The translations under genes were made by a program, and so were the position numbers. The notes under the pieces were generated by a model. It saw nothing but the letters and a program-made list of their open reading frames with translations, was not told the origin of the DNA and did no database searches. 64,000 bases of DNA from a virus. The DNA is taken from the IMG/VR virus record IMGVR_UViG_3300022226_000004, positions 12,992 to 76,991 of that record. One strand, 5' to 3'. This document shows, in pieces, positions 4,067 through 55,136 of the stretch; position 1 is the first letter of the stretch; the number at the start of each line of letters is the position of its first letter.

Positions 4067-5275
4067 TCATTGGTCCTCAATCCAGAGCAAACTTAACGTT
4101 GCGTCCGTAGTCGCAGCGGTGGCTCTTGCGGCAAAGGAAACAACATCGCCCGGAAACACCCTCGCATTGAGTTCATTCAGATTCAGGGAGAAACCTCGAT
4201 CCTTTGCCACGGATCTGACTATTAGGGCGGTTCCTCCAGTCACCGTTGTTCCAGCGGTATCTTTCTCAGTAAACGATTGCGAGGCGTTGATATCCGCATA
4301 AGAAGGAGACCCTCCAAGAGTAGGGTTTAGGACAACTCGAATGATGGCCGGCTTCGTCCCGTCAACACCAGCACTAAACAGGATGGGGAGCAGGAGCCCC
4401 TTGTTGTTCTTGCCGTTGAATGTTGACTTAACGCGCAACGCAAAGATGTTCGTGAGCGTGGTGCCAACACCAGTCTTAGTATTGTCCGTTGTGAATCTTG
4501 GCCCCAATAACCCGCCAGAGACCCCCTGCTGCCCAGCAAACCAAGATGCACACTTAACCACTACATCCGTGGCGTTACTCGTGTTGTTGGACTCAATCGC
4601 AAGCGGGAATGATGGGTTGTCAAAAGATGGCGCGGTATTGAGATTGGCGTATTTGATCCTGTGAACCAGGTAAAACGCACCAGTATCATTGCGCTCAATA
4701 TAAAACTGGATCTCACCAAACCCAAGATACTGCATTTGGATCCGGTAGACATTGCCGGTCTGCTGGTCAAGCGTGTCGCCACTCGGGCCAGTGCCGTCCA
4801 TCGGGTCAACATTCCATGAGGCTTGAGGAACAAACGTGTCAACGGTTGCTGAACGTCTGAAAATCCCAAAGGTCGTCCCCTGGTAGCCAAACATGACGCC
4901 ATTATCCACATCAAAGGCGCCGGCATACTGGTTGTTTCCTGAAGCTGGCGTATCAAAAACTGCGGTGAACCGAAAATCAGAACCTTGTCCGGCATCATAT
5001 TTGGCGATGCGGCGACTCCTCCCTCTCCCGACAGAACTCGTAGCCGCCCCGCTATGAGCCTCCAGCATGGATGACGCTACTGCTGTCGATCCAGACCCGG
5101 AGCTCTCGTCTGTTACGTTCTGAGCATTAAGCGTGTAGGTGAACGAAGCCTGAACTAACGGTTTGATCGACGTTATGATTTTCTCGCCAAAAGCAGCAAT
5201 CTGAAAATCCGGATCAACCGTGGTTTGAGCCGCAATGCCAACGCTTACCGGTGGTGGGGTGATTGTCAAGCTCAT
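4067..5275 (-). CDS. Virion structural / tail-associated beta-rich protein
   Basis: 402 aa, Gly/Ser/Thr-rich, with the QASWNVDPMDGTGPSG..QYLGFG motif seen in phage tail proteins; lies in the structural operon. Confidence 0.55.
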   Translation of the reverse strand: MSLTITPPPVSVGIAAQTTVDPDFQIAAFGEKIITSIKPLVQASFTYTLNAQNVTDESSGSGSTAVASSMLEAHSGAATSSVGRGRSRRIAKYDAGQGSDFRFTAVFDTPASGNNQYAGAFDVDNGVMFGYQGTTFGIFRRSATVDTFVPQASWNVDPMDGTGPSGDTLDQQTGNVYRIQMQYLGFGEIQFYIERNDTGAFYLVHRIKYANLNTAPSFDNPSFPLAIESNNTSNATDVVVKCASWFAGQQGVSGGLLGPRFTTDNTKTGVGTTLTNIFALRVKSTFNGKNNKGLLLPILFSAGVDGTKPAIIRVVLNPTLGGSPSYADINASQSFTEKDTAGTTVTGGTALIVRSVAKDRGFSLNLNELNARVFPGDVVSFAARATAATTDATLSLLWIEDQ

Positions 5276-13466: not shown

Positions 13467-15002
13467 ATGCCAGTTGACGCGAACGGTAGGTGGTATCCAG
13501 ATATTTGTGGAAAGCAACTCGAAGTCTTCAACGCCAGGAAGCGCTACACTCTTGTTGACGGTCCAAAGAAAAGCGGGAAATCCATTGCCAATCTTCATCG
13601 CTTAGCGCGGCACTTGTGGGAGGTGCCCAGTAGAGTTGGAGTTTTCACTAAGACACTCCGCAATGCCAAGTCGGGAGGAGTCTGGAATGACTTGATCGAT
13701 ATTATCCTTCCGGAATGGTTCGATTCCGGGATCGGCATCCGGTTCACAACCAGAAAATCTGACGGAACCTACGGCCCAAAGCAGGATGCCAACACCAGAA
13801 TGCAATACTTCAAAGTCAGAAACTCTCATGGAACACAATCTGAGGTTCAGCTCCACTCCATTGACAACGAGAGGGAAGTCGAATCCATTGCCAAAGGCAC
13901 AAGGTTCTCGATGTTCTACTTTGCCGAGCTCTCAAATTTCAAGAACAGGCTAGTATTCGATATTACTAGCGATCAGCTCCGCATGCCATCAATTGCATTC
14001 GAAGATCACATGTGGCTTGCCGACACAAACCCTTCTGACGACGGGCCGGATAGTTGGATCTACAAGCTCTGGTATTCATTCTTGGAAATGGAGGACTGCC
14101 CCCAGCCAAACCTTCAGCGCCACCTCCAACGAATCCAGATAATGATTGAGGACAATCCCTATCTGAGCGAAGAAGAAGTCAATGACCTCAAGGAGCGCTT
14201 TGTCTACGACCCTGATCTTTACGCCCGATATATCGAGGGCAAATGGGTTCACGCAGTGAAGGACGCCTTGTTCGAAACCCAATTCAAGCCAGCCGTCCAC
14301 GTCCTGGGTAACACAGACGCTCTAGATGAGGATCAATGGGAAATCCTACTGCCGTCAGATAACTGCTCCCAACTTCTTTCAGGATGGGATCTTGGAGACC
14401 GCTATCATTCAGCACACATCGTTGAAAAAGTTTCGACAGCTAATGGGCAGACATTCCTTGTCCTTGACGAATGCTGCAAGCTCAACCCGGAGGAGCAAGT
14501 CTCAATCAAGGACTTCACGGAAGAATTCCTGGAGCTTTACGAGTTCTGGATGAAGCGGGCAATCAATGGGCGAGTAGGCCCGGACGGAAAACCAATACTC
14601 GAGATCCCGTGGGTTCACTGGGCTGATTCGCAAGCCTTGAATTCCTACCGCAGTGGAGCAGACAACTACGATGCAAACCTGGTCTACAGCTATTCAGATG
14701 CCCGAATCGCATTCAATGCTGCCCCTAAATTTCCTGGGTCAGTCCAAACCAGAATCCGTTTAGTCAAGACACTGTTGTTTGAGGGGAGGTTGCTGATCTC
14801 GGCTAAATGCCAATCTACAATCCAGATGTTCAAATCACTGAAGGCGGGAAGTGGCGCTAAGCCAATCGCTCCATCAAAACACAGGCATCCTTTTGATTCG
14901 TTGTCCTATCTCCTTGCCTCAGAAGAGCCATGGGGCCTCCTCGAGGATCTGGATAAAACCGGGAACGACGAAAAAGAGCCGGCCATTGTGATGATACAAT
15001 GA
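13467..15002 (+). CDS. terL: Terminase large subunit
   Basis: Walker A GPKKSGKS, Walker B variant FYFAE, motif III DTNP, DNPYL..RYIEGKW, RNase H-like nuclease GWDLG...HPFDSLSY. Confidence 0.9.
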   Translation: MPVDANGRWYPDICGKQLEVFNARKRYTLVDGPKKSGKSIANLHRLARHLWEVPSRVGVFTKTLRNAKSGGVWNDLIDIILPEWFDSGIGIRFTTRKSDGTYGPKQDANTRMQYFKVRNSHGTQSEVQLHSIDNEREVESIAKGTRFSMFYFAELSNFKNRLVFDITSDQLRMPSIAFEDHMWLADTNPSDDGPDSWIYKLWYSFLEMEDCPQPNLQRHLQRIQIMIEDNPYLSEEEVNDLKERFVYDPDLYARYIEGKWVHAVKDALFETQFKPAVHVLGNTDALDEDQWEILLPSDNCSQLLSGWDLGDRYHSAHIVEKVSTANGQTFLVLDECCKLNPEEQVSIKDFTEEFLELYEFWMKRAINGRVGPDGKPILEIPWVHWADSQALNSYRSGADNYDANLVYSYSDARIAFNAAPKFPGSVQTRIRLVKTLLFEGRLLISAKCQSTIQMFKSLKAGSGAKPIAPSKHRHPFDSLSYLLASEEPWGLLEDLDKTGNDEKEPAIVMIQ

Positions 15003-32690: not shown

Positions 32691-32834
32691 AAAAAAAAGG
32701 CCGCTCACCGAAGACTCCCCAGCCAATTCAGTAAGCGGCCCGCTTCGCGTTGAGCAACGCCAAGATGAAAAATTAAACCGTAGGCCTAGACAAGTGAGAG
32801 CCTTTGGCCTACGGTGGTGACTGATTATGAAACC
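32691..32834 (-). ncRNA. Candidate ~145-nt sRNA
   Basis: Promoter TTGACA(32869)-17-GATGCT; 10-bp stem ACCGTAGGCC/GGCCTACGGT; terminator GGCCGCTTACTGAA/TTCGGTGAGCGGCC + T8. Confidence 0.45.
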
Positions 32835-32885
32835 GGGATGAGCATCGCTCACCGGCTTCAGAGTGTCAACCACCAAAAAAAGAAA

Positions 32886-33581
32886 ATGACTACAAGAGAA
32901 GCACTATTGGAGCTGATCACCTCAGCTACCGAACCTACCAAAATCGTGACCTACGATATGGCTGACAAACTCGGCGTCAGCCAAAACGCCGTTTTCAGGG
33001 CTCTGAAAAAACTCGTCAGAGACGGGCAGATCAAGCAGGTCGGACCCTCATTGTTCGCAAACCAGTCAACCAGGGTCGAAGAAGGTGTTGTTACGCCTGT
33101 TGTTACGCCTGTTGTTACGCCTGTTGTTACGCCTGTTGTTACGCCTGTTGTTACGCCTGTTGTTACGCCTGTTGTTGAAGGTGTTGTTGAAGGTGTTGTT
33201 GACCAACCTAAGCCGCTTGGCCCCAACACCTTGGAGTCAGGCAGGTTGATAGACGCCGATATTCCGCAAGACCAGTTGGCAACCATGACCAAAGCCGAGC
33301 TCGATGAAGTGATTGCCAGCGGCCCAGAAAGGCACCAGCTGCTATGCTTGAAGGAAAAACAACGCAGAAAACAAGCACAGGACCTCACCAAACTCCCGCA
33401 AGGCATGACCCTCGATCAATTCTACCGCCAGGAAAACAAGGAGATCTCCAAGAAAAAGGTCGATAGGCTCATCGAAACCATGACCGATGACCCAAAATAC
33501 GCTGATACCCTCGGAGTTTGGGCTGTTCCAAATATCACGGAAAGAAAACTCACCCTCCCGGCCCCAGAACCCAAGAACTAA
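32886..33581 (+). CDS. Winged-HTH protein with internal VVTP repeat
   Basis: DMADKLGVSQNAVFRALKKLVRDGQI; probable start 32886. Confidence 0.7.
   Translation: MTTREALLELITSATEPTKIVTYDMADKLGVSQNAVFRALKKLVRDGQIKQVGPSLFANQSTRVEEGVVTPVVTPVVTPVVTPVVTPVVTPVVTPVVEGVVEGVVDQPKPLGPNTLESGRLIDADIPQDQLATMTKAELDEVIASGPERHQLLCLKEKQRRKQAQDLTKLPQGMTLDQFYRQENKEISKKKVDRLIETMTDDPKYADTLGVWAVPNITERKLTLPAPEPKN
33087..33203 (+). repeat. 12-bp tandem repeat (GTTGTTACGCCT x7, then GTTGTTGAAGGT x2)
   Basis: Read directly from the sequence. Confidence 0.95.
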
Positions 33582-34189
33582 TGCCCCCTGAGATCCATCT
33601 CGTTAAAACCCAACCACTTATCACAACGGCTGATGTCACTGAAATCTGGAAACGAAATAAGGGCGTCCATACCAAAATCTTTGAGATCGCGAGACTCATG
33701 AAGCAAAGATCTAGCTACGAACCAAGCTGGCCCGAATTCGAGCTGACCGCCCGCACGATCATCAAGTTCTTTGAAACCATCCCTGAAATGCTGGACAGCG
33801 AGTTCAATGACCTGGAACTCCTGGCGAATCGCCTCAATAGAGACTTCACCAAGGTCATGATCCCAACCAATTTCTGGGAAGAATGGCTCACAATACACGA
33901 AAACCCTCACCCTGTTGCCCGCGTCTTCTTCCATGATCGTTGCATGTATCGCTCCTTAGCCAACTTCGTGGAACTAGCGAGTGCCAGAAGAAAGAGCTTC
34001 CCAATGCCTCAATACCAAATCGCAGCGCTCTTGAAACGCCCAAGATCTAATGTCCGCGATAGCATCGATCTCCTTCTAACTAAGAAAGTTATAGCAAAAA
34101 CCAGGGCCGCAATCCCAAAGACCAGGGCCGCAGAATACAGCCTCGATCGGAACTGGATCCCACTATGCTCAGAAAACCACGCCACATAG
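33581..34189 (+). CDS. Putative replication/DNA-binding protein with C-terminal HTH
   Basis: FPMPQYQIAALLKRPRSNVRDSIDLL...RAAEY; TAATG coupling. Confidence 0.5.
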   Translation: MPPEIHLVKTQPLITTADVTEIWKRNKGVHTKIFEIARLMKQRSSYEPSWPEFELTARTIIKFFETIPEMLDSEFNDLELLANRLNRDFTKVMIPTNFWEEWLTIHENPHPVARVFFHDRCMYRSLANFVELASARRKSFPMPQYQIAALLKRPRSNVRDSIDLLLTKKVIAKTRAAIPKTRAAEYSLDRNWIPLCSENHAT

Positions 34190-34275
34190 AGAAACCCCGC
34201 CGCATAGAGCGATGACAAAAACCACGCCCTCAGGACCCCTCATGAATCTCCAGGACCCCTCAGGAATCTCCAGGA
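34174..34275 (+). repeat. Iteron-like direct repeats
   Basis: 18-mer AAACCMCGCCRCATAGAG x2 (34174, 34192) plus a partial copy at 34219; 20-mer CAGGACCCCTCAKGAATCTC x2 (34231, 34251) plus CAGGA. Confidence 0.8.
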
Positions 34276-34345
34276 TAGGAGGTGTGGAGGAAAGGCCATC
34301 TTTTGTCCAACGGACGCTAGCTCATTTGCCATAAAAACCAAAACC

Positions 34346-34534
34346 ATGAAATGTCTCATCATCGGTTCCAGAAACGGGAAGATCACCGACGTAGGCCTAG
34401 TCGATCACGACAAATGGTTCCATCTCAACCCCCCTGGCGTAGATCGCCTCACCATCATCGATGACTTCAACCCCCTTGACTGGACTAACTCCAGGATCTT
34501 CCAAGCCTGGGAAACCTTGAATCACCTTGACTAA
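34346..34534 (+). CDS. Hypothetical protein, paralog A
   Basis: LIIGSRNGKIT...DRLTIIDDFNPLDWTNS. Confidence 0.55.
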   Translation: MKCLIIGSRNGKITDVGLVDHDKWFHLNPPGVDRLTIIDDFNPLDWTNSRIFQAWETLNHLD

Positions 34535-34561
34535 CCCAACCACCTAAGCCGCACTCAACCC

Positions 34562-34849
34562 ATGAGTCGTAAATTCAACGAAGGAACTGAGTTCACCGTC
34601 AGAAACTCAAAGTCAACCTACCGAGTCTCTCATCGCTTCGGAAACAAGATCGTCGTTACCGCACTCGACGAACACGGCGATACCCACTTCGAAGTCATGG
34701 TCGTCCGAACCCATAAACACGACCACACCCTAGAAAACCGGGTCGTCCACCTCGCCGGCGATGAGTTCCTCCCTTCGCCCAACGAATGGGGAACCTACGG
34801 ATGGACTCCCACATCCCTGAATCGCGCTCTACAAATCGCTCAGGAATAG
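34562..34849 (+). CDS. Hypothetical phage protein
   Basis: FEVMVV...EFLPSPNEWGTYGWT motif. Confidence 0.65.
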   Translation: MSRKFNEGTEFTVRNSKSTYRVSHRFGNKIVVTALDEHGDTHFEVMVVRTHKHDHTLENRVVHLAGDEFLPSPNEWGTYGWTPTSLNRALQIAQE

Positions 34850-34951
34850 CCTTTCTTCGTGTATGCACCCACCATATTTTCCATTTGAAGACACCAAGGG
34901 TATCTTTTCATGATCCCAGCCATCCAAACGCTTAAAGGCGAAAGCACTGAA

Positions 34952-35143
34952 ATGAACCTTCTAATCGCTTCCAAAAACGGGGAAATCACGTCTGTCCTCG
35001 CTCTCCAAATCCCTTGGATACCAACCTTCAACCCAAACCTCTGTGACCGCATCACCTTCATCCAAAACTTCCGCCCCGGTGACTGGACCAATTCTCCCGT
35101 CCTCAAAATCTTCTCAGACGCCTTCCCTTCAACTAGCCATTAG
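34952..35143 (+). CDS. Hypothetical protein, paralog B
   Basis: LLIASKNGEIT...DRITFIQNFRPGDWTNS. Confidence 0.55.
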   Translation: MNLLIASKNGEITSVLALQIPWIPTFNPNLCDRITFIQNFRPGDWTNSPVLKIFSDAFPSTSH

Positions 35144-35261
35144 TATGTGTGAGAGGGACCCATTATACTGAAAAGCGACTACCCCCCTTACCCCTCCCCC
35201 TACCGGGTTGTAGATATACTTGTCGATTACGCAAGTAACCTAATGGCAGCACGTTACAAAA

Positions 35262-35885
35262 GTCTCCCTTGACTAGATCCTATTCGTCGAGTTAGGGAGC
35301 TGCAGCGATTTCAGGCTCATTGGAGCAGAACGAAGTCAACGTAAACGAAAGTTTGCAAGGCCAGACAGGAGTCTGCAAACCAAGCAAACCCAAATGCTGG
35401 ACGCCACTAGCATGGGGTTGATCAGAATCGGATGGCCAAGCGGCCGCGACGTTGAATCACGTATCTCTCGACTTCGCTCTATCTGAGAGCAATGAGACGC
35501 GAGGAGCACGCAAGCCAAGATCCGAGGGCGCCAACTGCTGGAAGTGTTGGTTGCACGCGACGAGAAGATCGCCAGCCACTAGGTGTGGGCCGAAACGAGT
35601 CGAGAGACTGCCGGTGAACTAGGTTTATCCTAGCATGAGCGAAGCGGGGCGTGACGTAAAGGTTAGGTGTAGTGAGCACGGGAGTCGGGAGACAAGCCTC
35701 TCACGGATTCAATGGAACGGGTTAAAGGCCAAAGGGCTTGCTTATGGTGAGCCGGTCAACCAAGAGCGGAACAGTGGTTCAAGACTGCAACAAGATTCCG
35801 CCAAGGGAAAGGCCTTTGTTCAACCGTTCCTTGAACCGAGTCGCAGAAAGCAAGTCATGGTGACAAGCGGGCGATTCGGTTACAA
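35262..35885 (+). ncRNA. Candidate large multi-domain structured RNA (~620 nt)
   Basis: ORF-poor 750-bp gap tiled with nested helices, e.g. TCTCTCGACT(35464)/AGTCGAGAGA(35598), GGAACGG(35714)/CCGTTCC(35824), AACCGAGTCGC(35834)/GCGATTCGGTT(35871). Confidence 0.65.
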
Positions 35886-35893
35886 GGAATGAT

Positions 35894-36361
35894 ATGAACG
35901 CTATTGTAAGATCCAAGGTCCAAGAGAAATCCATCAAGATTGGCCGACGCGAGGTTCCGCTGAACGATTGCCTAGTGACGCGAGTGACTGCGACAGGAGC
36001 CGCGTCATTGGTTCCGATTAGTCGCAAGGCATTGCGTGAGCGGAATGATTTGACGGCATCGGAGGCCAAGCGGGCGCATCGCGAGGTTTGCATTCATTTA
36101 AAGCAAGTGCAAGCTGGTGTTTTCGCGTCACTATCGGCGAACAGTGATTTCGTGGGGCTTGGGTTCAAGCAGAACGCGAAGGGTAATCGCATCAGTTTTG
36201 AGCTCGAGCATCGCCTTCCTGAATCGGAGCAATCATCGCGAGCCATCCGCCTAGCGGAGGACAACGCAATGCTCAAGGAGGACAATGAAGTGTTGGCGGC
36301 CAAGTTGGAGGCCATGGAGAAGATGTTACGCGACGCCGGGCTTTTGAAAGACAAGGCCTAG
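35894..36361 (+). CDS. Hypothetical protein with C-terminal coiled coil, first early gene
   Basis: 155 aa, immediately after the structured region. Confidence 0.7.
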   Translation: MNAIVRSKVQEKSIKIGRREVPLNDCLVTRVTATGAASLVPISRKALRERNDLTASEAKRAHREVCIHLKQVQAGVFASLSANSDFVGLGFKQNAKGNRISFELEHRLPESEQSSRAIRLAEDNAMLKEDNEVLAAKLEAMEKMLRDAGLLKDKA

Positions 36362-38062
36362 CTCCAGGGTGTCCCTAACGACCAAGCCTAACGACTATGA
36401 CAGCGAAAGGAAGTAATGAAGTATTGTGTAACGTATAGAGTCGGTGAACGCATTCACGAGCGGATAGTAGAAGCGAACAGCTATGGGTGCGCCGAGGAAC
36501 GTGTCATGGCGGACGAACCGGACGCCACGCACGTTGTGAGCGAAGAATACCACGGCTATGAAGGCTATGACCGGCATGACTGGTCAACGGCGATCACGAA
36601 CTACTTGGACTAACCTAAGCCCCTGACAGCCAAACCTAGAGACCACTGAAAGGAGAAGTATGGACAAGCAAGAAAAAGCAAGGATGGACATTCGTTTATT
36701 AGCGGAGAGCGCGAAGCCGGAGCTAAGGGATTTCGCGATGTCGCGCATCAAGGAGCTCGACGAGTGCATTGGCATGCAGCGTGGCACGGAGCAAATCGTG
36801 GTCCACGGCTTCGCTTCGGAGCTTGATGCCATCGTGAGATATTTGGAGTGGAAAGGAGTAACATGGTAAAGAAGTATATAGTGATTGGCGTGCGCTTTGG
36901 CGAAACCCAAGCATGGATTTGCGAGGCCTCGTCCGAGTATCAGGCCCGCGAGAAAGCGAAGGCAAGTGGACTGTGTGTGACCCAAGTATTTGACTGCCCC
37001 TAATGAAAACCATGACCTACGAACAACAGAAGCAAGCGATACTTGCCAGTATGTCAGCGAGCTATTGGCTGAAGGAAGCCATTGAGCGGCTTGATGGGCG
37101 TGACCCATTGGATGCTCTGCAAGACGCGGAGATCCTCAAGACATTGCAGCACGTAAGGGCACTGGATCTGCTTAGAAAGGAGAAGTAAGATGGACAATGA
37201 CGTGCAGTCTTTGCGCGACCAGTTGAAGGATGCTCGCGTGAAGCATGGCGCTTGGTCAGAAGTAAGGCACGGCGGAGCCACTTACCTAGGCCCAGTTTGG
37301 TCTCATCATCAAGGAGATTTTCACTGGAGCAAGCGAGTTGGCAACACAGCTATAATGGTTTTGGAAAGCGAGCAATGATAACGACGCTAAAGGATCTCTT
37401 TAAGGAGGTTGGCGTTGACACGCTGGCGGCCCTCAAGAAATCCATCTTCAAGGGCACTGAATGTGGCGCATGGATTGAGCCTGGCGAGGGCTACGTCGTG
37501 CTCGGCAGCATCGTTGAAGGCAGTGATGCGGAGGCAACGCCCGTGGAATTGTTCTATCCATTCAGCCGGGATGATTTCTGGCAAGCACTTGAAAGCGTGG
37601 ACAAGGAAGCCTGCGCATTATGGGAAGAAGCGAACACTGAAGATGATGATGACCTATGATCAACTAATCGCCGGCCTGATCCTCACGCTGGCATTGCTAT
37701 GGAGCACGATGATGCTATGAAGTATGGACTAGTCATCAAGGTAGTGCTGCCTTCCGTGATGGAGGCAGTGCTTTTGGTGGAAACCAAGCGCGGCCAAGGT
37801 GCCAAGGCATGGTTTCATAACACTGGGCACGGGCAATGGGCCGTGTGTTGGAGGCACAAGAGATGAGTGCAGCAAAGCTATACCCAAGGCTTTTGGTTTA
37901 CCAGCTGATCGGAGGTCAGGAGATTTACGTGGGCAAGGTCATGCTGGAAGGGCAGACCCACCAAGAGGCTGTCGCTGAGCTAAGGAAACGACTATTGCCT
38001 CGTCATCGAGTGGCAACGAAGTCAATGGATAAGACGGGCAGCCTCGAGGTGCTCATATACTG

Positions 38063-38512: not shown

Positions 38513-39816
38513 CAGAAGAACAGAACGCATTGGTCGCAGAGCTCAGGCAAAAGCTCTTTGAGGTATCGGCCCAGCTCAACGCGGTATTGCATGATCGCAA
38601 CACTGACGGGCTGTGGGGAATCCTCACTGATGTCAAGTGGGATTGCGACTACGTCATGGATCACATGCTAAAGCTGATGAAGGATAACAAATGACAAGAG
38701 AGGAATACGAGAAGTATTGCGCTGACTTTGAGCGCGGCACCAAGGGGCTGGAGTTTCTATCGAGCGGAGCCAGTCACAACTGCGGTGAATGCAACCCGGA
38801 AGGGCTCACTGAGGAGGAGTTCGGGCACGACCATGATCCATGGTTTTCAGCGAGCCCGTGCGACATCTGTGGCGGGCTGGCTGGCAATCGAGAGCCGGCT
38901 CATGGCTGGCTGAAGATGGATAACGGAACCGAAGAGCTGTGCCACATAGATATATGCGTGGACTGTGTTTACTTCATGGAATACGGGCAGCTCGACGACA
39001 TGACAATGCTAGACATGGAGGAAGAATGATACTGAACGACCTTGACCGAACGGCAGTCAACATCACCATGATTTGCGCGGCAAAACTGGATGACAACCTG
39101 CTCACCGTTAATTTCGGGGCAGGGTGGTGGATGACACTGAAATACAGCACCATTGATGGCGCGTATGCGGACTGGCATAGGATCACTGACATAATGGACG
39201 ATAAGGAGTATGAAAGAAAATACTGATCAACAGTGGTGGATTATCCACCTGCGTTCCGGGGAAGCGATAAAGTTCTTCGGAGCCGTGCAGATAGAGTTCG
39301 AGCCCGGTGGTGAGCTCAAGAGATTTAGCTGGAAACAATTTGTCATCAACAAAGGAGACACTGCGTTGATCTATATCAATCCCGAGGATGTAGCCGCGAT
39401 AACAGCGATAGCGGAAGGTGAGTCATGAGACTATTCTACTGCGATCACAATCACAAGGCCACTGAGGTCAGGCTATTGCCTTGCGGTGGTGGGGGCTACG
39501 TTCAGTGTTGCGAGAGGCACTACAAGAAGGAGATGCACTATCGTTTCTCTCGCTTCATGCAAGAGGAGGTGCCGTATGAGTTCCCTTTATGGCGAGACCT
39601 CAAGGTGGTGGAGTGATGACACCTCAAGAAGATATTGAGCAGGTGATGGCCATCGAGGAAGTGGCCATGGTTGAAGACCGGGAGGAATACTTGGCATGCC
39701 TCAATGGTAAGCCAATGGCTGAGCGGCATACCGAACGCGAGGTCAGGGATGGTTGCATCCTAGTGAATCATGTTTACCTTTTTAGAAAGACCCGTAACCC
39801 GTGAGTGCGGTAACAA

Positions 39817-40041
39817 GGCGTGGGTTCTTGGATTGCCCTTCATACTTGCGACGCGTGACGCAAGGCCAACCACTGGGATCACGCAATTACTTTCGGCAGG
39901 ACATACACTGTCGTCAGCAGGCTCCCTTCGGGGTCGAGCTGACATGCGTGAGTGCGCAATCCCGTGGGCAAACCACGGACAAGAAACGCTGAGACGAACA
40001 ACAACAAGCTGATTAGGGGTGCCGCATCAACACGGCACCCC
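39817..40041 (+). ncRNA. Candidate ~225-nt structured RNA
   Basis: Nested stems GGATTGC/GCAATCC, TCACGCA/TGCGTGA, GTCAGC/GCTGAC, CCC-TTCG-GGG, CCGTGG/CCACGG, GGGGTGCCG/CGGCACCCC. Confidence 0.55.
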
Positions 40042-42680: not shown

Positions 42681-43019
42681 ATGAAGAACATGAAACTAGT
42701 GGGTCAGCTTTTGGAACTCCTAACTGATGACAGTTCGGAAGCAGGGTGTCACGCCAATCACATCGATGCCTTCATAGGCAAGTCGGTATTCATCCGCACT
42801 GTCACCCTGTATTACACAGGGCGCCTGGTCAAGGTGGAAGACAAGTTCCTTGTGCTCACAGATGCGGCTTGGATAGCAGACACGGGTCGCCTTAGCGAGG
42901 CGTTGATATCCGGGCAGTTCAATGAAGTAGAGCCGATGCCCGGACCAATCCTGGTAGCAATTAACGCCATCGTAGAGCTGTCCGAGTTTAGTCACCCTTT
43001 GCCAAGAGTGGCAAAATGA
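42681..43019 (+). CDS. Small Sm/SH3-like beta-barrel protein (DUF6948-like)
   Basis: IGKSVFIRTVTLYYTGRLVKV..FLVLTDAAWIADTGR; probable start 42681. Confidence 0.6.
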   Translation: MKNMKLVGQLLELLTDDSSEAGCHANHIDAFIGKSVFIRTVTLYYTGRLVKVEDKFLVLTDAAWIADTGRLSEALISGQFNEVEPMPGPILVAINAIVELSEFSHPLPRVAK

Positions 43020-43357
43020 CAGCTGCGTTATTGGCTGGGTGTTGGTTTTCGCCTAGGTCTGAGCCTGCATCTTTGTCTAGGTCTTGGTCCAGGGTTTTGA
43101 CTGGGTCCAGGTCTTGGGCTGGGTCTAGGTCTGGGTTTTCGTCTAGGTCTGGGTCTTCGGCTGGGTCTTGGGCTAGGTTTTCGGCTGGGTCTTGGTCTTG
43201 GGCTAGGTCTGGGTCCAGGTCTTGGGCTGGGTCTAGGTCTGGGTTTTCGTCTAGGTCTGGGTCTTCGGCTGGGTCTTGGGCTAGGTTTTCGGCTGGGTCT
43301 TGGTCTTGGGCTAGGTCTGGGCCTAGGTCTGGGTCTGGGTCTAGGTCTGGGGGATAG
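43016..43357 (+). CDS. Ser/Gly/Arg/Trp low-complexity repeat protein
   Basis: ATGA-coupled; alternating S/A with R/G/W. Confidence 0.55.
   Translation: MTAALLAGCWFSPRSEPASLSRSWSRVLTGSRSWAGSRSGFSSRSGSSAGSWARFSAGSWSWARSGSRSWAGSRSGFSSRSGSSAGSWARFSAGSWSWARSGPRSGSGSRSGG
43101..43321 (+). repeat. 108-bp tandem duplication built from hexamers (TCTGGG/TCTAGG/TCTTGG/GCTGGG)
   Basis: Units start at 43101 and 43209 and encode an identical 36-aa peptide twice. Confidence 0.9.
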
Positions 43358-52930: not shown

Positions 52931-53154
52931 AAGTTTGCCAAGGGCCAGACTGTGGCAAGGCGCCGGACGGACACAGCTATTACTTCTGTCGGTCATGCGA
53001 ATCCGAGGTGACTCACGCTCTGCTGGAGCAAATACGCCAGGCCTACAACGCTGACAACGCCAAGCGATTGCGAGCGTTAATGGTTCGGGCTGGTCTAGAT
53101 CTTGTCGGCAAGAAACACGGGCTGAAATGCAAGAGACGCAAGAAGAAAAAGTAA
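52897..53154 (+). CDS. Small Zn-finger protein
   Basis: CQGPDC...FCRSC. Confidence 0.45.
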   Translation: MDNAKKNVSRVKVCQGPDCGKAPDGHSYYFCRSCESEVTHALLEQIRQAYNADNAKRLRALMVRAGLDLVGKKHGLKCKRRKKKK

Positions 53155-53897
53155 CCACTTGGTTTGAGTGCGCTTCGTGCGGCAAGCGGAAGTCCATGGT
53201 CTGTAACAAGATCGGCCTAACGTGGTTCAAGGAGACCGAAACTTTGGACAATGGGGATGTGCTGGTCAAGAGCATAGGGATTCGATGCGACTCATGCAAT
53301 CAGCAGACCGTGCCGAAAACCGTTGACGGGACAGAGCTGATCAACAAGTGGATACCGGAAGCTTATAAAGATTCCCGTGTCGAGATGTTACAAGAGGTGT
53401 CAGGCCTTGGAGCCCAGACATTTGAGCGGATCATGACCTGGTCGCATGATAAGAGCCTTCTTCTTTATGGCCCTCCAAGACGGGGCAAGACAAGGATGGT
53501 TTGCCAGTTGCTAATGAGGTTTGCCCACGAGGGGCACGGCATCCAGTTCCTGGACAGCCAGCGCTTCCGCCGTGGGGTAGAGGAAGGCTTGCGAATGAAA
53601 TACTTTGATGATTGGTTCAGCCGTGCAGCCAAGGTGCGCGTGTTAGCACTAGACGATCTCGGCAAGATCAAGGGCTCTGAGAAACGAGTTGAAGAAGAAC
53701 TGTTCAACCTTGTAGACACCCGCGTCGCCAATGGGCGGCCGCTCATTGTAACGACCAACGCAAGTGTCGATGAGCTCAAATCCAGGTTCTCTAAAGCCAT
53801 AGCTGAGCCATTGATCAAGAGGCTCCAAGACTGCTGCACCTCGTTCGCTATAGGCATGGGCGACGTTGGCGAAGAACAAGAACTTGAGCTAGTATGA
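53127..53897 (+). CDS. DnaC/IstB-like helicase loader ATPase
   Basis: CxxC..CxxC, LLLYGPPRRGKT, VLALDDLG, LFNLVDTR..RPLIVTTN. Confidence 0.88.
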   Translation: MQETQEEKVTTWFECASCGKRKSMVCNKIGLTWFKETETLDNGDVLVKSIGIRCDSCNQQTVPKTVDGTELINKWIPEAYKDSRVEMLQEVSGLGAQTFERIMTWSHDKSLLLYGPPRRGKTRMVCQLLMRFAHEGHGIQFLDSQRFRRGVEEGLRMKYFDDWFSRAAKVRVLALDDLGKIKGSEKRVEEELFNLVDTRVANGRPLIVTTNASVDELKSRFSKAIAEPLIKRLQDCCTSFAIGMGDVGEEQELELV

Positions 53898-54235
53898 CAT
53901 GGCTCGAGACATTGGATCAGCTGCCGCCGATATGCTGCCGCTTGTCAGCACGGCACAACCATGCGCTCATGCCGTTGCGCATGATCCAAGATCGATCCGG
54001 CTTGTCATGGGCTAAGGTTAAAAGGATCTCGCGGTTGACAACCTGGGAGTCAGTCAAAATAGGCGATGCGATAAAGTTCGCGGAAGCGTGTGGTGTGGAT
54101 TTGCTACGGAAGCGCCACAAAAGGCACTACCTCAGGCGAGTGCTCAACGGAAGGGATCCCGTGGCAACGCTTGCGGGAAAGAAAGAACAAGAGAAATATG
54201 TGGAGACACTGATACGAAGGCTAACAAATGAGTGA
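53894..54235 (+). CDS. HTH-like protein upstream of the recombinase
   Basis: LRMIQDRSGLSWAKVKRIS..FAEACGVD. Confidence 0.5.
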   Translation: MTWLETLDQLPPICCRLSARHNHALMPLRMIQDRSGLSWAKVKRISRLTTWESVKIGDAIKFAEACGVDLLRKRHKRHYLRRVLNGRDPVATLAGKKEQEKYVETLIRRLTNE

Positions 54236-55136
54236 AGTAACAGACACTGAGGCTGCAGTAGTAGCCTACTTCGAAGCCAATGACGATCGATGGTCAGTGC
54301 GAACAAGGGAGTCAATGCGGGACTGGATCCTTGCTGCCGTTCCTCACATTGGGGCAGACCTGAATGGGGACACCATTAATAAGTATCTAGACAGGAAACG
54401 GAGGCAGGGCCGATCTAATAATACTGTGTCGCTCTATCGACGCGCTTTAAAGTCCTTGTGTCAATGGTCGGAAGAACATGGATACGCACCCAAAGGGGAA
54501 GCGGACAAAATCAAACCCTACAGCAAGGTGAGCCCGCTGAAGCGGGACGTTATCACCCATGCTGAATACCTCAAGATAATAGAGGTCACTGAAATCAACT
54601 ACCCTTGCCTTGCGGATCCTTTCCGCGTGGCTTATTGGACTGGCCTGCGCTGCTTCGATGTCTACAGATTGGCCCGAGAGCATATCGATCAGGCCGAGTC
54701 TGCTATCATTATGGTCCCGCACAAGACCAAAAGATTTGATCGTAGGGTTTGCATCCCTATCGACTGGAATACCGAACTAGGCGAGACCCTGCTGCGCCAC
54801 CTTGATCTAGCTGTGGATGATGTCACTCCTTTCTTTACGCCTTATGGGTCACTGGCGCACAAACCTGGTGCAAACCTGTCACAGGTAACAAAAGACATTC
54901 AACTAAAAGCAGGTGTCAGGAAGTTTACCTTTCATACCTTCAGGCGCACGTTCTTAACAAACTTGATGAACTCAGGGGCGGCACCACAGATTGCCACCGC
55001 TGTCTCAGGGATCAAGGCGCCCGAAGTGCTCATGAGATATGTTGTCCCACAGGCAGAGGGACTCAGAAGGGTAATGTCTGAAGCTCGTCGATACACAGTA
55101 ACCAAGGAAAAATATGGAAGCGATAAAACAATATGA
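54228..55136 (+). CDS. int: Tyrosine recombinase/integrase
   Basis: TGLR..V, HKTK, FHTFRRTF, RYV; SAM-like N-terminal domain. Confidence 0.88.
   Translation: MSEVTDTEAAVVAYFEANDDRWSVRTRESMRDWILAAVPHIGADLNGDTINKYLDRKRRQGRSNNTVSLYRRALKSLCQWSEEHGYAPKGEADKIKPYSKVSPLKRDVITHAEYLKIIEVTEINYPCLADPFRVAYWTGLRCFDVYRLAREHIDQAESAIIMVPHKTKRFDRRVCIPIDWNTELGETLLRHLDLAVDDVTPFFTPYGSLAHKPGANLSQVTKDIQLKAGVRKFTFHTFRRTFLTNLMNSGAAPQIATAVSGIKAPEVLMRYVVPQAEGLRRVMSEARRYTVTKEKYGSDKTI

Follow-up and report, generated by a model that had tools for sequence, protein, structure and literature searches.

Several described systems bear on structured RNAs that lie in front of phage genes. In the leader of the MS2 maturation gene, delayed folding hides the ribosome site (PMC4615214), and in translational riboswitches and operators the Shine-Dalgarno (SD) sequence is sequestered in the expression platform (PMC4735710). 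GOLLD and ROOL are large ornate RNAs of phages and prophages, which are made as independent transcripts and are often encoded near tRNA islands (PMC12286853). Here we describe a structured RNA element of a phage genome at about positions 35520-35893 of a 64-kb window, the whole stretch of DNA that was analysed (positions 12992-76991 of the 76,991-bp IMG/VR record IMGVR_UViG_3300022226_000004, a record rated 100% complete). The element lies upstream of a plus-strand gene for a 155-amino-acid protein (35894-36361), and on balance it is probably a cis-acting structured leader of the mRNA of that gene that controls translation initiation.

The sole usable relative was IMGVR_UViG_3300022413_000008 (73,174 bp, hereafter G001), whose TerL is 81% identical and which is collinear with the present genome as a circular permutation. 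The gap in front of the 155-amino-acid gene has its copy at positions 384-1089 of locus L005 in G001, and the distance from a conserved 30-nt box at the 5' edge of the gap to the ATG is 706 nt there and 726 nt here. Identity over the gap was about 47% overall. The conserved blocks were the box (35138-35167), a C-tract (35183-35201), GTAGTGAGC, TCTCACGGATTnAAnGGAACGGGTTA, TTCAACCGTTCCTTG, and the SD CAAGGAAT with the ATG.

For the consensus test, the two sequences were aligned with MAFFT blind to structure, and the RNAalifold energy was compared with that of 200 column shuffles. The consensus-fold z was -6.75 for 35520-35712 (structure conservation index 0.68) and -5.84 for 35520-35896, both beating all 200 shuffles, and in sliding windows the local signal was confined to 35508-35703 (z -4.8 to -7.5). 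As coding controls, 45 aligned blocks of the same genome pair were run on both strands, and these 90 tests gave a mean of -0.12, a standard deviation of 1.12 and a minimum of -3.3. The consensus structure of 35520-35712 contains 46 pairs, of which 14 were changed on both sides and still paired, five were changed on one side and none was broken. When the 3' partners were slid by 1-3 columns as a control, 0-1 compensatory pairs and 34-46% pairing were obtained. This comparison of homologues for covariation had been proposed as a check in an earlier reading of the DNA made from its letters alone (the sequence-only reading), and with one homologue it supported part of the proposed pairing. A permissive count of positionally matched stems (4-7 bp) was indistinguishable from the slid-partner null and was dropped. 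Judged by sequence comparison, 35520-35712 is a predicted conserved structured RNA, with helices kept by compensatory changes beyond the controls.

All the helices described below are on the plus strand. The first, at 35531-35550, is the hairpin CCAAC...GTTGG, extended on the inside by 3 bp (columns 12-20 with 24-31 of alignment A4), in which one of the eight pairs was compensatory (A-U to U-A) and none was broken. It is followed by a multibranch domain (35551-35659) that is closed by TTGCACGC (35551-35558) with GCGT (35649-35652) and GTAA (35656-35659), a helix that showed two compensatory and three one-sided changes against G001. Four hairpins stand inside. A CCAC/GTGG hairpin (35576-35588) carries two compensatory changes, and a GNRA hairpin (35589-35615), with the loop GAGA here and GAAA in G001, carries three. 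The CTAGG/CCTAG hairpin (35619-35633), which the sequence-only reading had listed, is GTGAG/CTCAC in G001, with three compensatory pairs, and the fourth is a GC-GAA-GC hairpin (35639-35645). No pair of the multibranch domain was broken in G001, and the consensus-fold z of 35548-35664 was -7.5. Downstream, at 35660-35702, the connecting helices AGGT/GCCT (35660-35663 with 35696-35699) and GTGT/GCAC (35667-35670 with 35676-35679), which are helices 10 and 11 of alignment A4, showed three compensatory pairs. Their register is less certain than that of the multibranch domain, and an alternative GTGAG/CTCAC pairing is found in the same stretch.

The RNA is read as plus-sense, like the flanking genes, because 9 of 92 cells hold G-U pairs, which on the other strand would read as A-C mismatches, because the GAGA and GAAA tetraloops read as GNRA on the plus strand only, and because the consensus energy was lower on the plus strand (-42.5) than on the minus strand (-34.2). 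The earlier proposal of a plus-strand structured RNA with several domains was thus supported by G001 through compensatory pairs, G-U pairs and GNRA loops. The same proposal had noted a recurrent CAAG; CCAAG is indeed enriched on the plus strand, but across the whole 3.7-kb locus and not in the leader alone.

For domain 5, which follows, and for the terminal hairpin, the sequence-only alignment misplaced the arms (z = -0.8), so the helices of both were compared directly. Domain 5 (35706-35837) is predicted to be a three-way junction that is closed by P1 and in which P2 encloses a P3 hairpin and a P4 arm. P1, GGAACGG/CCGTTCC (35714-35720 with 35824-35830), is invariant in G001, and its extension TTCAA/TTGAA reads TTTAA/TTGGA there, with two one-sided G-U changes. 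P2, AAAGGCC/GGCCTTT (35724-35730 with 35811-35817), is AGACGCC/GGCGTCT in G001, with two compensatory changes. The P3 hairpin lies at 35735-35753. P4 consists of GCGGAA/TTCCGC (35766-35771 with 35796-35801) and an inner CAGT/ACTG, and G001 has other helices at the same places. These four helices (P1, P2 and the two of P4) had been listed by the sequence-only reading and are supported by the comparison. When the domain was folded separately for each phage, the minimum-free-energy structures showed one and the same three-way junction (-54.0 and -53.8 kcal/mol). A covariance model that was built solely from the domain 5 sequence of the present phage and the structure predicted for it scored G001 at 36.4 bits (E = 1e-5 in 137 kb), and a sequence-only model of domain 5 scored it at 16.3 bits. 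No second copy of domain 5 was found in either genome by covariance-model search.

The last helix of the element is a predicted SD-occluding hairpin of 67 nt (35825-35891). Its base, CGTTCCTTG/CAAGGAATG, pairs the anti-SD with the SD and is stacked on an inner stem, AACCGAGTCGC/GCGATTCGGTT, and the hairpin ends 2 nt before the ATG. In G001 it is likewise 67 nt long, the base is kept as CGTTCCTTG/CAAGGAAT(G), and the inner stem is TCGGGCAGTCTGG/CTAGACTGCCCGA; most positions of this 11-13-bp stem differ, and its position and pairing are the same. The sequence-only reading had ended on an 11-bp stem in this place, which has thus been rewritten in G001 and is still paired. The energy of the hairpin was -36.9 kcal/mol here and -43.0 kcal/mol in G001. 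The SD AAGGAA (35884-35889) and the ATG (35894-35896) together span 35884-35896, and G001 has kept CAAGGAAT plus the ATG; many genes of this phage are preceded by AAGGA-type motifs. The computed probability that the SD is unpaired was 0.001-0.002 in both phages, and the ribosome site at 35894 was the least accessible among 31 plus-strand starts. In these folds an upstream anti-SD sequesters the SD in a helix that is both stable and conserved.

Part of the anti-SD TTCCTTG coincides with the 3' strand of P1, CCGTTCC, and the two pairings are predicted to compete. Forcing P1 cost 5-7 kcal/mol in the calculation and freed the SD. In transcripts ending before the SD, the probability of P1 was 0.97-0.995 in both phages, and anti-SD/SD pairing was 0.73-0.87 at the ATG and 0.997 at 20 nt later, again in both. 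A mutually exclusive pairing that frees the SD is therewith predicted for both sequences. In this region of about 50% identity, the only long invariant blocks were TCTCACGGATTnAAnGGAACGGGTTA, TTCAACCGTTCCTTG and CAAGGAAT, all of them segments with two alternative partners. Strands that need two partners are what a switch predicts to be invariant, and the element is therefore read as a cis-acting leader.

In the mechanism that we propose, the 67-nt hairpin would at equilibrium pair the anti-SD TTCCTTG with the SD CAAGGAA, and the ribosome would be blocked. P1 with its TTCAA/TTGAA extension would close domain 5 and share the letters TTCC(TTG) with the anti-SD. Being transcribed first, P1 may form on the nascent RNA and leave the SD free, until the SD strand emerges and the hairpin displaces part of P1. 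Translation may then occur only in a short window after transcription, a delayed-folding control as in the MS2 maturation gene, or it may occur while a ligand or protein holds domain 5 closed, in a riboswitch-like or operator-like manner. The multibranch domain with its GNRA loop (35551-35659) would probably serve as a scaffold or a sensor for the switch. We infer in the same way that the RNA is the 5' untranslated region of the 155-amino-acid gene, and likewise its transcript boundaries, its switching in vivo and a trigger for it. The sequence-only reading had suggested that the RNA acts with the 155-amino-acid protein as a partner. Because the SD lies inside the last hairpin and the best-conserved segments take part in exclusive pairings with the anti-SD, the link to that protein is most likely translational control instead.

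Several points weigh against this leader interpretation. The structures and the folding order are thermodynamic predictions, and transcription of the region and the 5' end of the RNA are presumed. No promoter was recognised, the conserved box being no match to sigma-70. The consensus structure on which pairs were counted came from the same alignment as the counts, and with two sequences only, a proper covariation statistic of the R-scape type is impossible; moreover, the invariant P1 and anti-SD blocks cannot covary. The margin by which the site at 35894 is the least accessible is narrow (0.226 vs 0.235 on a broad measure). The multibranch domain has no assigned role, and for a translational operator the element is very large, at about 370 nt or, should transcription cover the whole gap, 720 nt. 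Finally, the element adjoins a GC-skew switch, which suggests another kind of function.

The 750-nt gap (35144-35893) separates the plus-strand genes at 34910-35143 and 35894-36361 and is non-coding. Each frame contains 5-14 stops. Recoding of stop codons was considered and rejected: frame 1, which has the fewest interruptions, contains TAA, TAG and TGA alike, and for that reason no single stop reassignment opens it. An 85-amino-acid open reading frame (ORF) at 35635-35892, which abuts the ATG, is absent from G001, where the matching frame is open for 8 codons; translational coupling through this ORF was rejected, as it has no counterpart there. Compared with G001, no conserved peptide was found in any frame of the gap, and the sole weak match fell on the box at the 5' edge. 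The sequence-only reading had called this the longest ORF-poor gap of the genome, which depends on the threshold chosen; the gap at 39227-39878 is comparable. A 26-nt motif, AGACCCGTAAnCCGTGAGTGCGG (39788-39813), is kept in G001 (4404-4429), and an adjacent candidate structured RNA at 39818-40041 gave no comparative signal in a simple alignment with G001 (38% identity, z = -0.14).

The 5' part of the gap behaved differently from the element. The variable 5' half (35205-35519, plus strand), which comprises the first two domains of the sequence-only reading together with the 5' portion of its domain 3, has a stable fold here that is not conserved. Its identity to G001 is about 34%, the consensus-fold z was +0.45 (35168-35530), with sliding values mostly near 0 and one window at -2.1, and the thermodynamic z was -2.9 here and +0.08 in G001. 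No comparative support was found for 35168-35507 against G001, nor in particular for domain 1 and the closure of domain 2. A perfect 10-bp helix, TCTCTCGACT/AGTCGAGAGA, had been taken to close domain 3. Its 5' arm lies in about 90 nt absent from G001, and its 3' arm overlaps the conserved GNRA hairpin, which uses AGTC (35598-35601), so this closure is genome-specific or due to chance. The roughly 90 nt in question (35418-35510) also contain a hairpin, GCTCT-ATCTG-AGAGC, and resemble a lineage-specific insertion. A loop-to-distal pseudoknot, GGTTCAAG/CTTGAACC, was rejected, since G001 has no complement of 5 nt or more. Although all the helices of the sequence-only reading were found where it had placed them, its structured RNA of about 620 nt is reduced by the comparison to about 370 conserved nt, and several of its long-range closures are genome-specific.

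Two short conserved features precede this variable half. The 30-nt box, CATTAGnATGTGTGAnnGGGACCCATTATA (35138-35167, plus strand), stands directly 3' of the upstream stop and is identical at 27 of 30 positions in G001. It is unique in the window at up to 3 mismatches, was found in no other IMG/VR contig and did not match the sigma-70 consensus. It could be a promoter, an origin element or signal, or the RNA 5' end. The C-rich tract, CCCCCCTTACCCCTCCCCC (35183-35201, plus strand), is conserved in G001 and lies at the sign change of the GC skew.

Folding energy of the single sequence was only moderately unusual. The z of 35262-35893 was -4.6 (20 shuffles), and that of 35176-35893 was -2.4 on the plus strand and -1.6 on the minus strand (100 dinucleotide shuffles). 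By part, the values were -2.9 for the 5' half, about 0 for the middle (35520-35712) and -4.2 for domain 5 with the terminal hairpin. The folding check that had been suggested came out only modestly better than the shuffles overall, and the middle did not differ from them.

A bolder version of the proposal is that the 370-nt core (multibranch domain, three-way junction and SD hairpin) is a new class of large sensor RNA, which would bind a small molecule, a host factor or the 155-amino-acid product and gate the first gene after an immunity-like module. The box and the C-tract at the skew switch would then form one unit with this core and link translation of that gene to the onset of replication or transcription. 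We regard this as unlikely, though worth stating.

It is improbable that the element is instead a free-standing large noncoding RNA of a new class, as had been proposed from the sequence alone, acting in trans or as an RNA-only or RNA-protein particle as is thought for GOLLD and ROOL, with the overlap with the SD incidental. A multibranch junction and a GNRA loop are among its several conserved helical domains, which would suit such an RNA, and 370-720 nt is in the size range of the ornate phage RNAs (PMC12286853). Typical GOLLD and ROOL loci lie near tRNA genes (PMC12286853), and none is nearby here: ARAGORN found no tRNA or tmRNA in the 64-kb window. The absence of a known family is also compatible with a new class. 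Rfam 15 gave no match in the whole window at gathering thresholds, as the sequence-only reading had expected. With E up to 10, the only match in 34800-36400 was pRNA (16.8 bits, E = 4; minus strand, 35073-35120), which is outside the element, and the G001 locus had none at that threshold. The families covered by Rfam include GOLLD, ROOL, OLE, HEARO, raiA, riboswitches, ribozymes, group I/II introns, RNase P and tmRNA. No terminator-like site was found in or after the element, and no sigma-70 promoters or intrinsic terminators in 34500-36600. An RNA with no terminator-like 3' end, whose last hairpin contains the SD so close to the ATG and whose best-conserved letters compete for the anti-SD, is difficult to regard as free-standing, all the more as it occurs once in each genome. 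Because of the missing terminator, the SD in the 3' hairpin, the unconserved 5' half and the missing tRNA island, a free-standing RNA of the GOLLD or ROOL type is unlikely.

We give a low probability to the possibility that the gap is a replication-origin element, either a structured pre-primer or R-loop RNA like ColE1 RNA II, or DNA hairpins with the box and the C-tract as signals. ColE1 RNA II is a structured pre-primer RNA. Cumulative GC skew is lowest at about 35.2 kb, with a sign change common to G001, and the box and C-tract lie exactly at this switch; in G001 about 340 nt separate the box from the contig end upstream. A mere reversal of transcription direction does not account for the switch, since the genes to its left that show negative skew are on the plus strand as well. 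The conserved structure, however, is linked to the SD and stands 350-700 nt rightward of the switch, and the G-U pairs and GNRA loops that occur in its helices speak for RNA and not DNA. No iterons, direct-repeat arrays or markedly AT-rich stretch were found in the gap (lowest GC 0.46), and no DnaA-box match was seen on reading the sequence by eye.

The skew itself flips at 35138-35201 from about -0.4 to positive. The plus-strand ORFs at 32814-35143 differ from all other plus-strand gene blocks in their strongly negative GC skew (-0.1 to -0.46), and a 255-amino-acid protein encoded among them has weak winged-helix matches. This module of about 2 kb has no counterpart in G001, where an RmlD-like gene is found and the contig then ends within about 400 nt; the module is either truly absent or was lost at the contig break.

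An equally low probability attaches to a leader that acts on transcription of the downstream operon, as a processive antitermination RNA (put-like or nut-like) or as a P4-type immunity leader with a processed small RNA. Such a role would fit the conserved hairpin modules and also the position, which follows closely on a conserved box and opens a long co-directional gene block of a temperate phage. The C-rich, G-poor tract at 35183-35201 resembles a Rho loading site, a resemblance that rests on the known properties of rut sites. However, no downstream terminators were predicted that such an RNA would override, Rfam gave no match, antitermination and immunity RNAs included as far as they are in Rfam, and with no tRNA or tmRNA found by ARAGORN no tRNA-like processing signal is evident. 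The conserved occlusion of the SD would also be left unexplained.

That the helices are chance palindromes without function in a fast-evolving spacer is already disfavoured and hardly credible: the modest single-sequence z (-2.4, and about 0 for the middle domain on energy alone), the unconserved 5' half and the permissive stem-matching statistic that could not be separated from its null are set against consensus-fold z values of -6 to -7.5 where coding controls never fell below -3.3, 14 compensatory pairs with none broken, a gap length that is kept, and a 67-nt hairpin that is rewritten but preserved.

Turning to the genome, genes are oriented leftward as far as about 32.6 kb and rightward from 32.8 kb on. 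A DnaC/IstB-like AAA+ helicase loader (53127-53897) and a tyrosine integrase (54228-55136) are encoded, from which we take the phage to be temperate and its host to be bacterial. The upstream neighbour of the gap is a 77-amino-acid ORF (34910-35143) with weak similarity to a 75-amino-acid ORF at the same place in G001. The downstream gene on the plus strand (35894-36361) encodes a protein with a beta-rich N-terminal part and two long helices, for which no match was found in Pfam or PHROG. Its AlphaFold2 model had a predicted local distance difference test (pLDDT) score of 68.5, and no fold in the PDB matched the model at E up to 0.001. Further along, a terminator scan drew attention to repeat units CTTGGGCTGGGTCTAGGTCTGGG at 43113-43243, with copies 108 nt apart; they lie in the range of the ORF 43016-43357 and are probably a repeat within a coding region.

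The phage clade is very sparsely sampled. No further homologue of the 155-amino-acid protein was found in IMG/VR, and an alignment of its family searched against the JGI metagenomes returned G001's own contig only. Among 5.8 billion proteins it had only two relatives, the only addition being P0002, which is 86% identical and encoded on a 1338-nt Logan contig. TerL (13467-15002) and a TerL alignment searched against IMG/VR yielded, beside G001, two distant sequences on short contigs (L013 and L014; 41% and 32%). DNA patterns drawn from P1, the middle domain and the box retrieved from IMG/VR only G001 and three AT-rich chance matches (L008-L010). Of two pattern scans of genome contigs, the first was empty and the second gave one chance match inside a Luteolibacter ABC-transporter gene. 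GenBank phages gave no match when searched by DNA, and TerL matched only haloarchaeal viruses among them (27.6% identity). Seven DNA runs from sediment or estuary (2018) contain part or all of the stretch; the four that were compared contained only identical low-depth fragments with no variants.

Classified by sequence and covariance model, the element is a putative new RNA family that at present counts two members; elements of its kind are known, and among them its size is unusually large. Very little has been charted of the structured cis-regulatory RNAs that uncultivated phages encode, and the present candidate has a readable competition between SD, anti-SD and P1. If the interpretation is true, it would show by what means a temperate phage restricts or times expression of a gene where its immunity-like and early modules meet, and control by folding kinetics, of which few cases are known, would gain a leader RNA of unusual size. 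For now, the value of the candidate is reduced by there being two members only.

Among known systems, ColE1 RNA II shares with this locus a structured RNA several hundred nucleotides long beside the start of a replication-type strand asymmetry. Here, however, the structure is downstream of the skew switch and runs into the ribosome site of a gene, a C-rich RNA near the switch would not favour a persistent hybrid, and no antisense unit like RNA I was seen. GOLLD and ROOL resemble the element in being large, multi-domain structured RNAs encoded by phages. They differ in that their members number in the hundreds and not two, and the present RNA matches no Rfam model, has no tRNA neighbours, is conserved over about 370 nt, is joined to an SD and lacks a separate 3' end. 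As for translational riboswitches, neither a known aptamer class nor a metabolic clue in the downstream gene was found, and the element is far larger. The likeness is in the logic: the P1 of a junction domain uses some of the letters of an SD-occluding helix, only one of the two can form at a time, and the switching segments are invariant while other helices covary. In working principle, the MS2 leader is, together with such riboswitch platforms, the nearest case. MS2 has an RNA genome and a much shorter cloverleaf leader, of about 130 nt, whereas about 370 nt are conserved here in a temperate phage with double-stranded DNA; the helix that competes for the anti-SD closes a separate three-way junction, and the two leaders have no sequence or Rfam relationship. 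In both, however, an upstream complementary sequence within a multi-helix leader is predicted or known to pair with the ribosome-binding site at equilibrium, translation in the model would be possible only before the final fold is reached, and the structure is kept in relatives while the peripheral arms vary.

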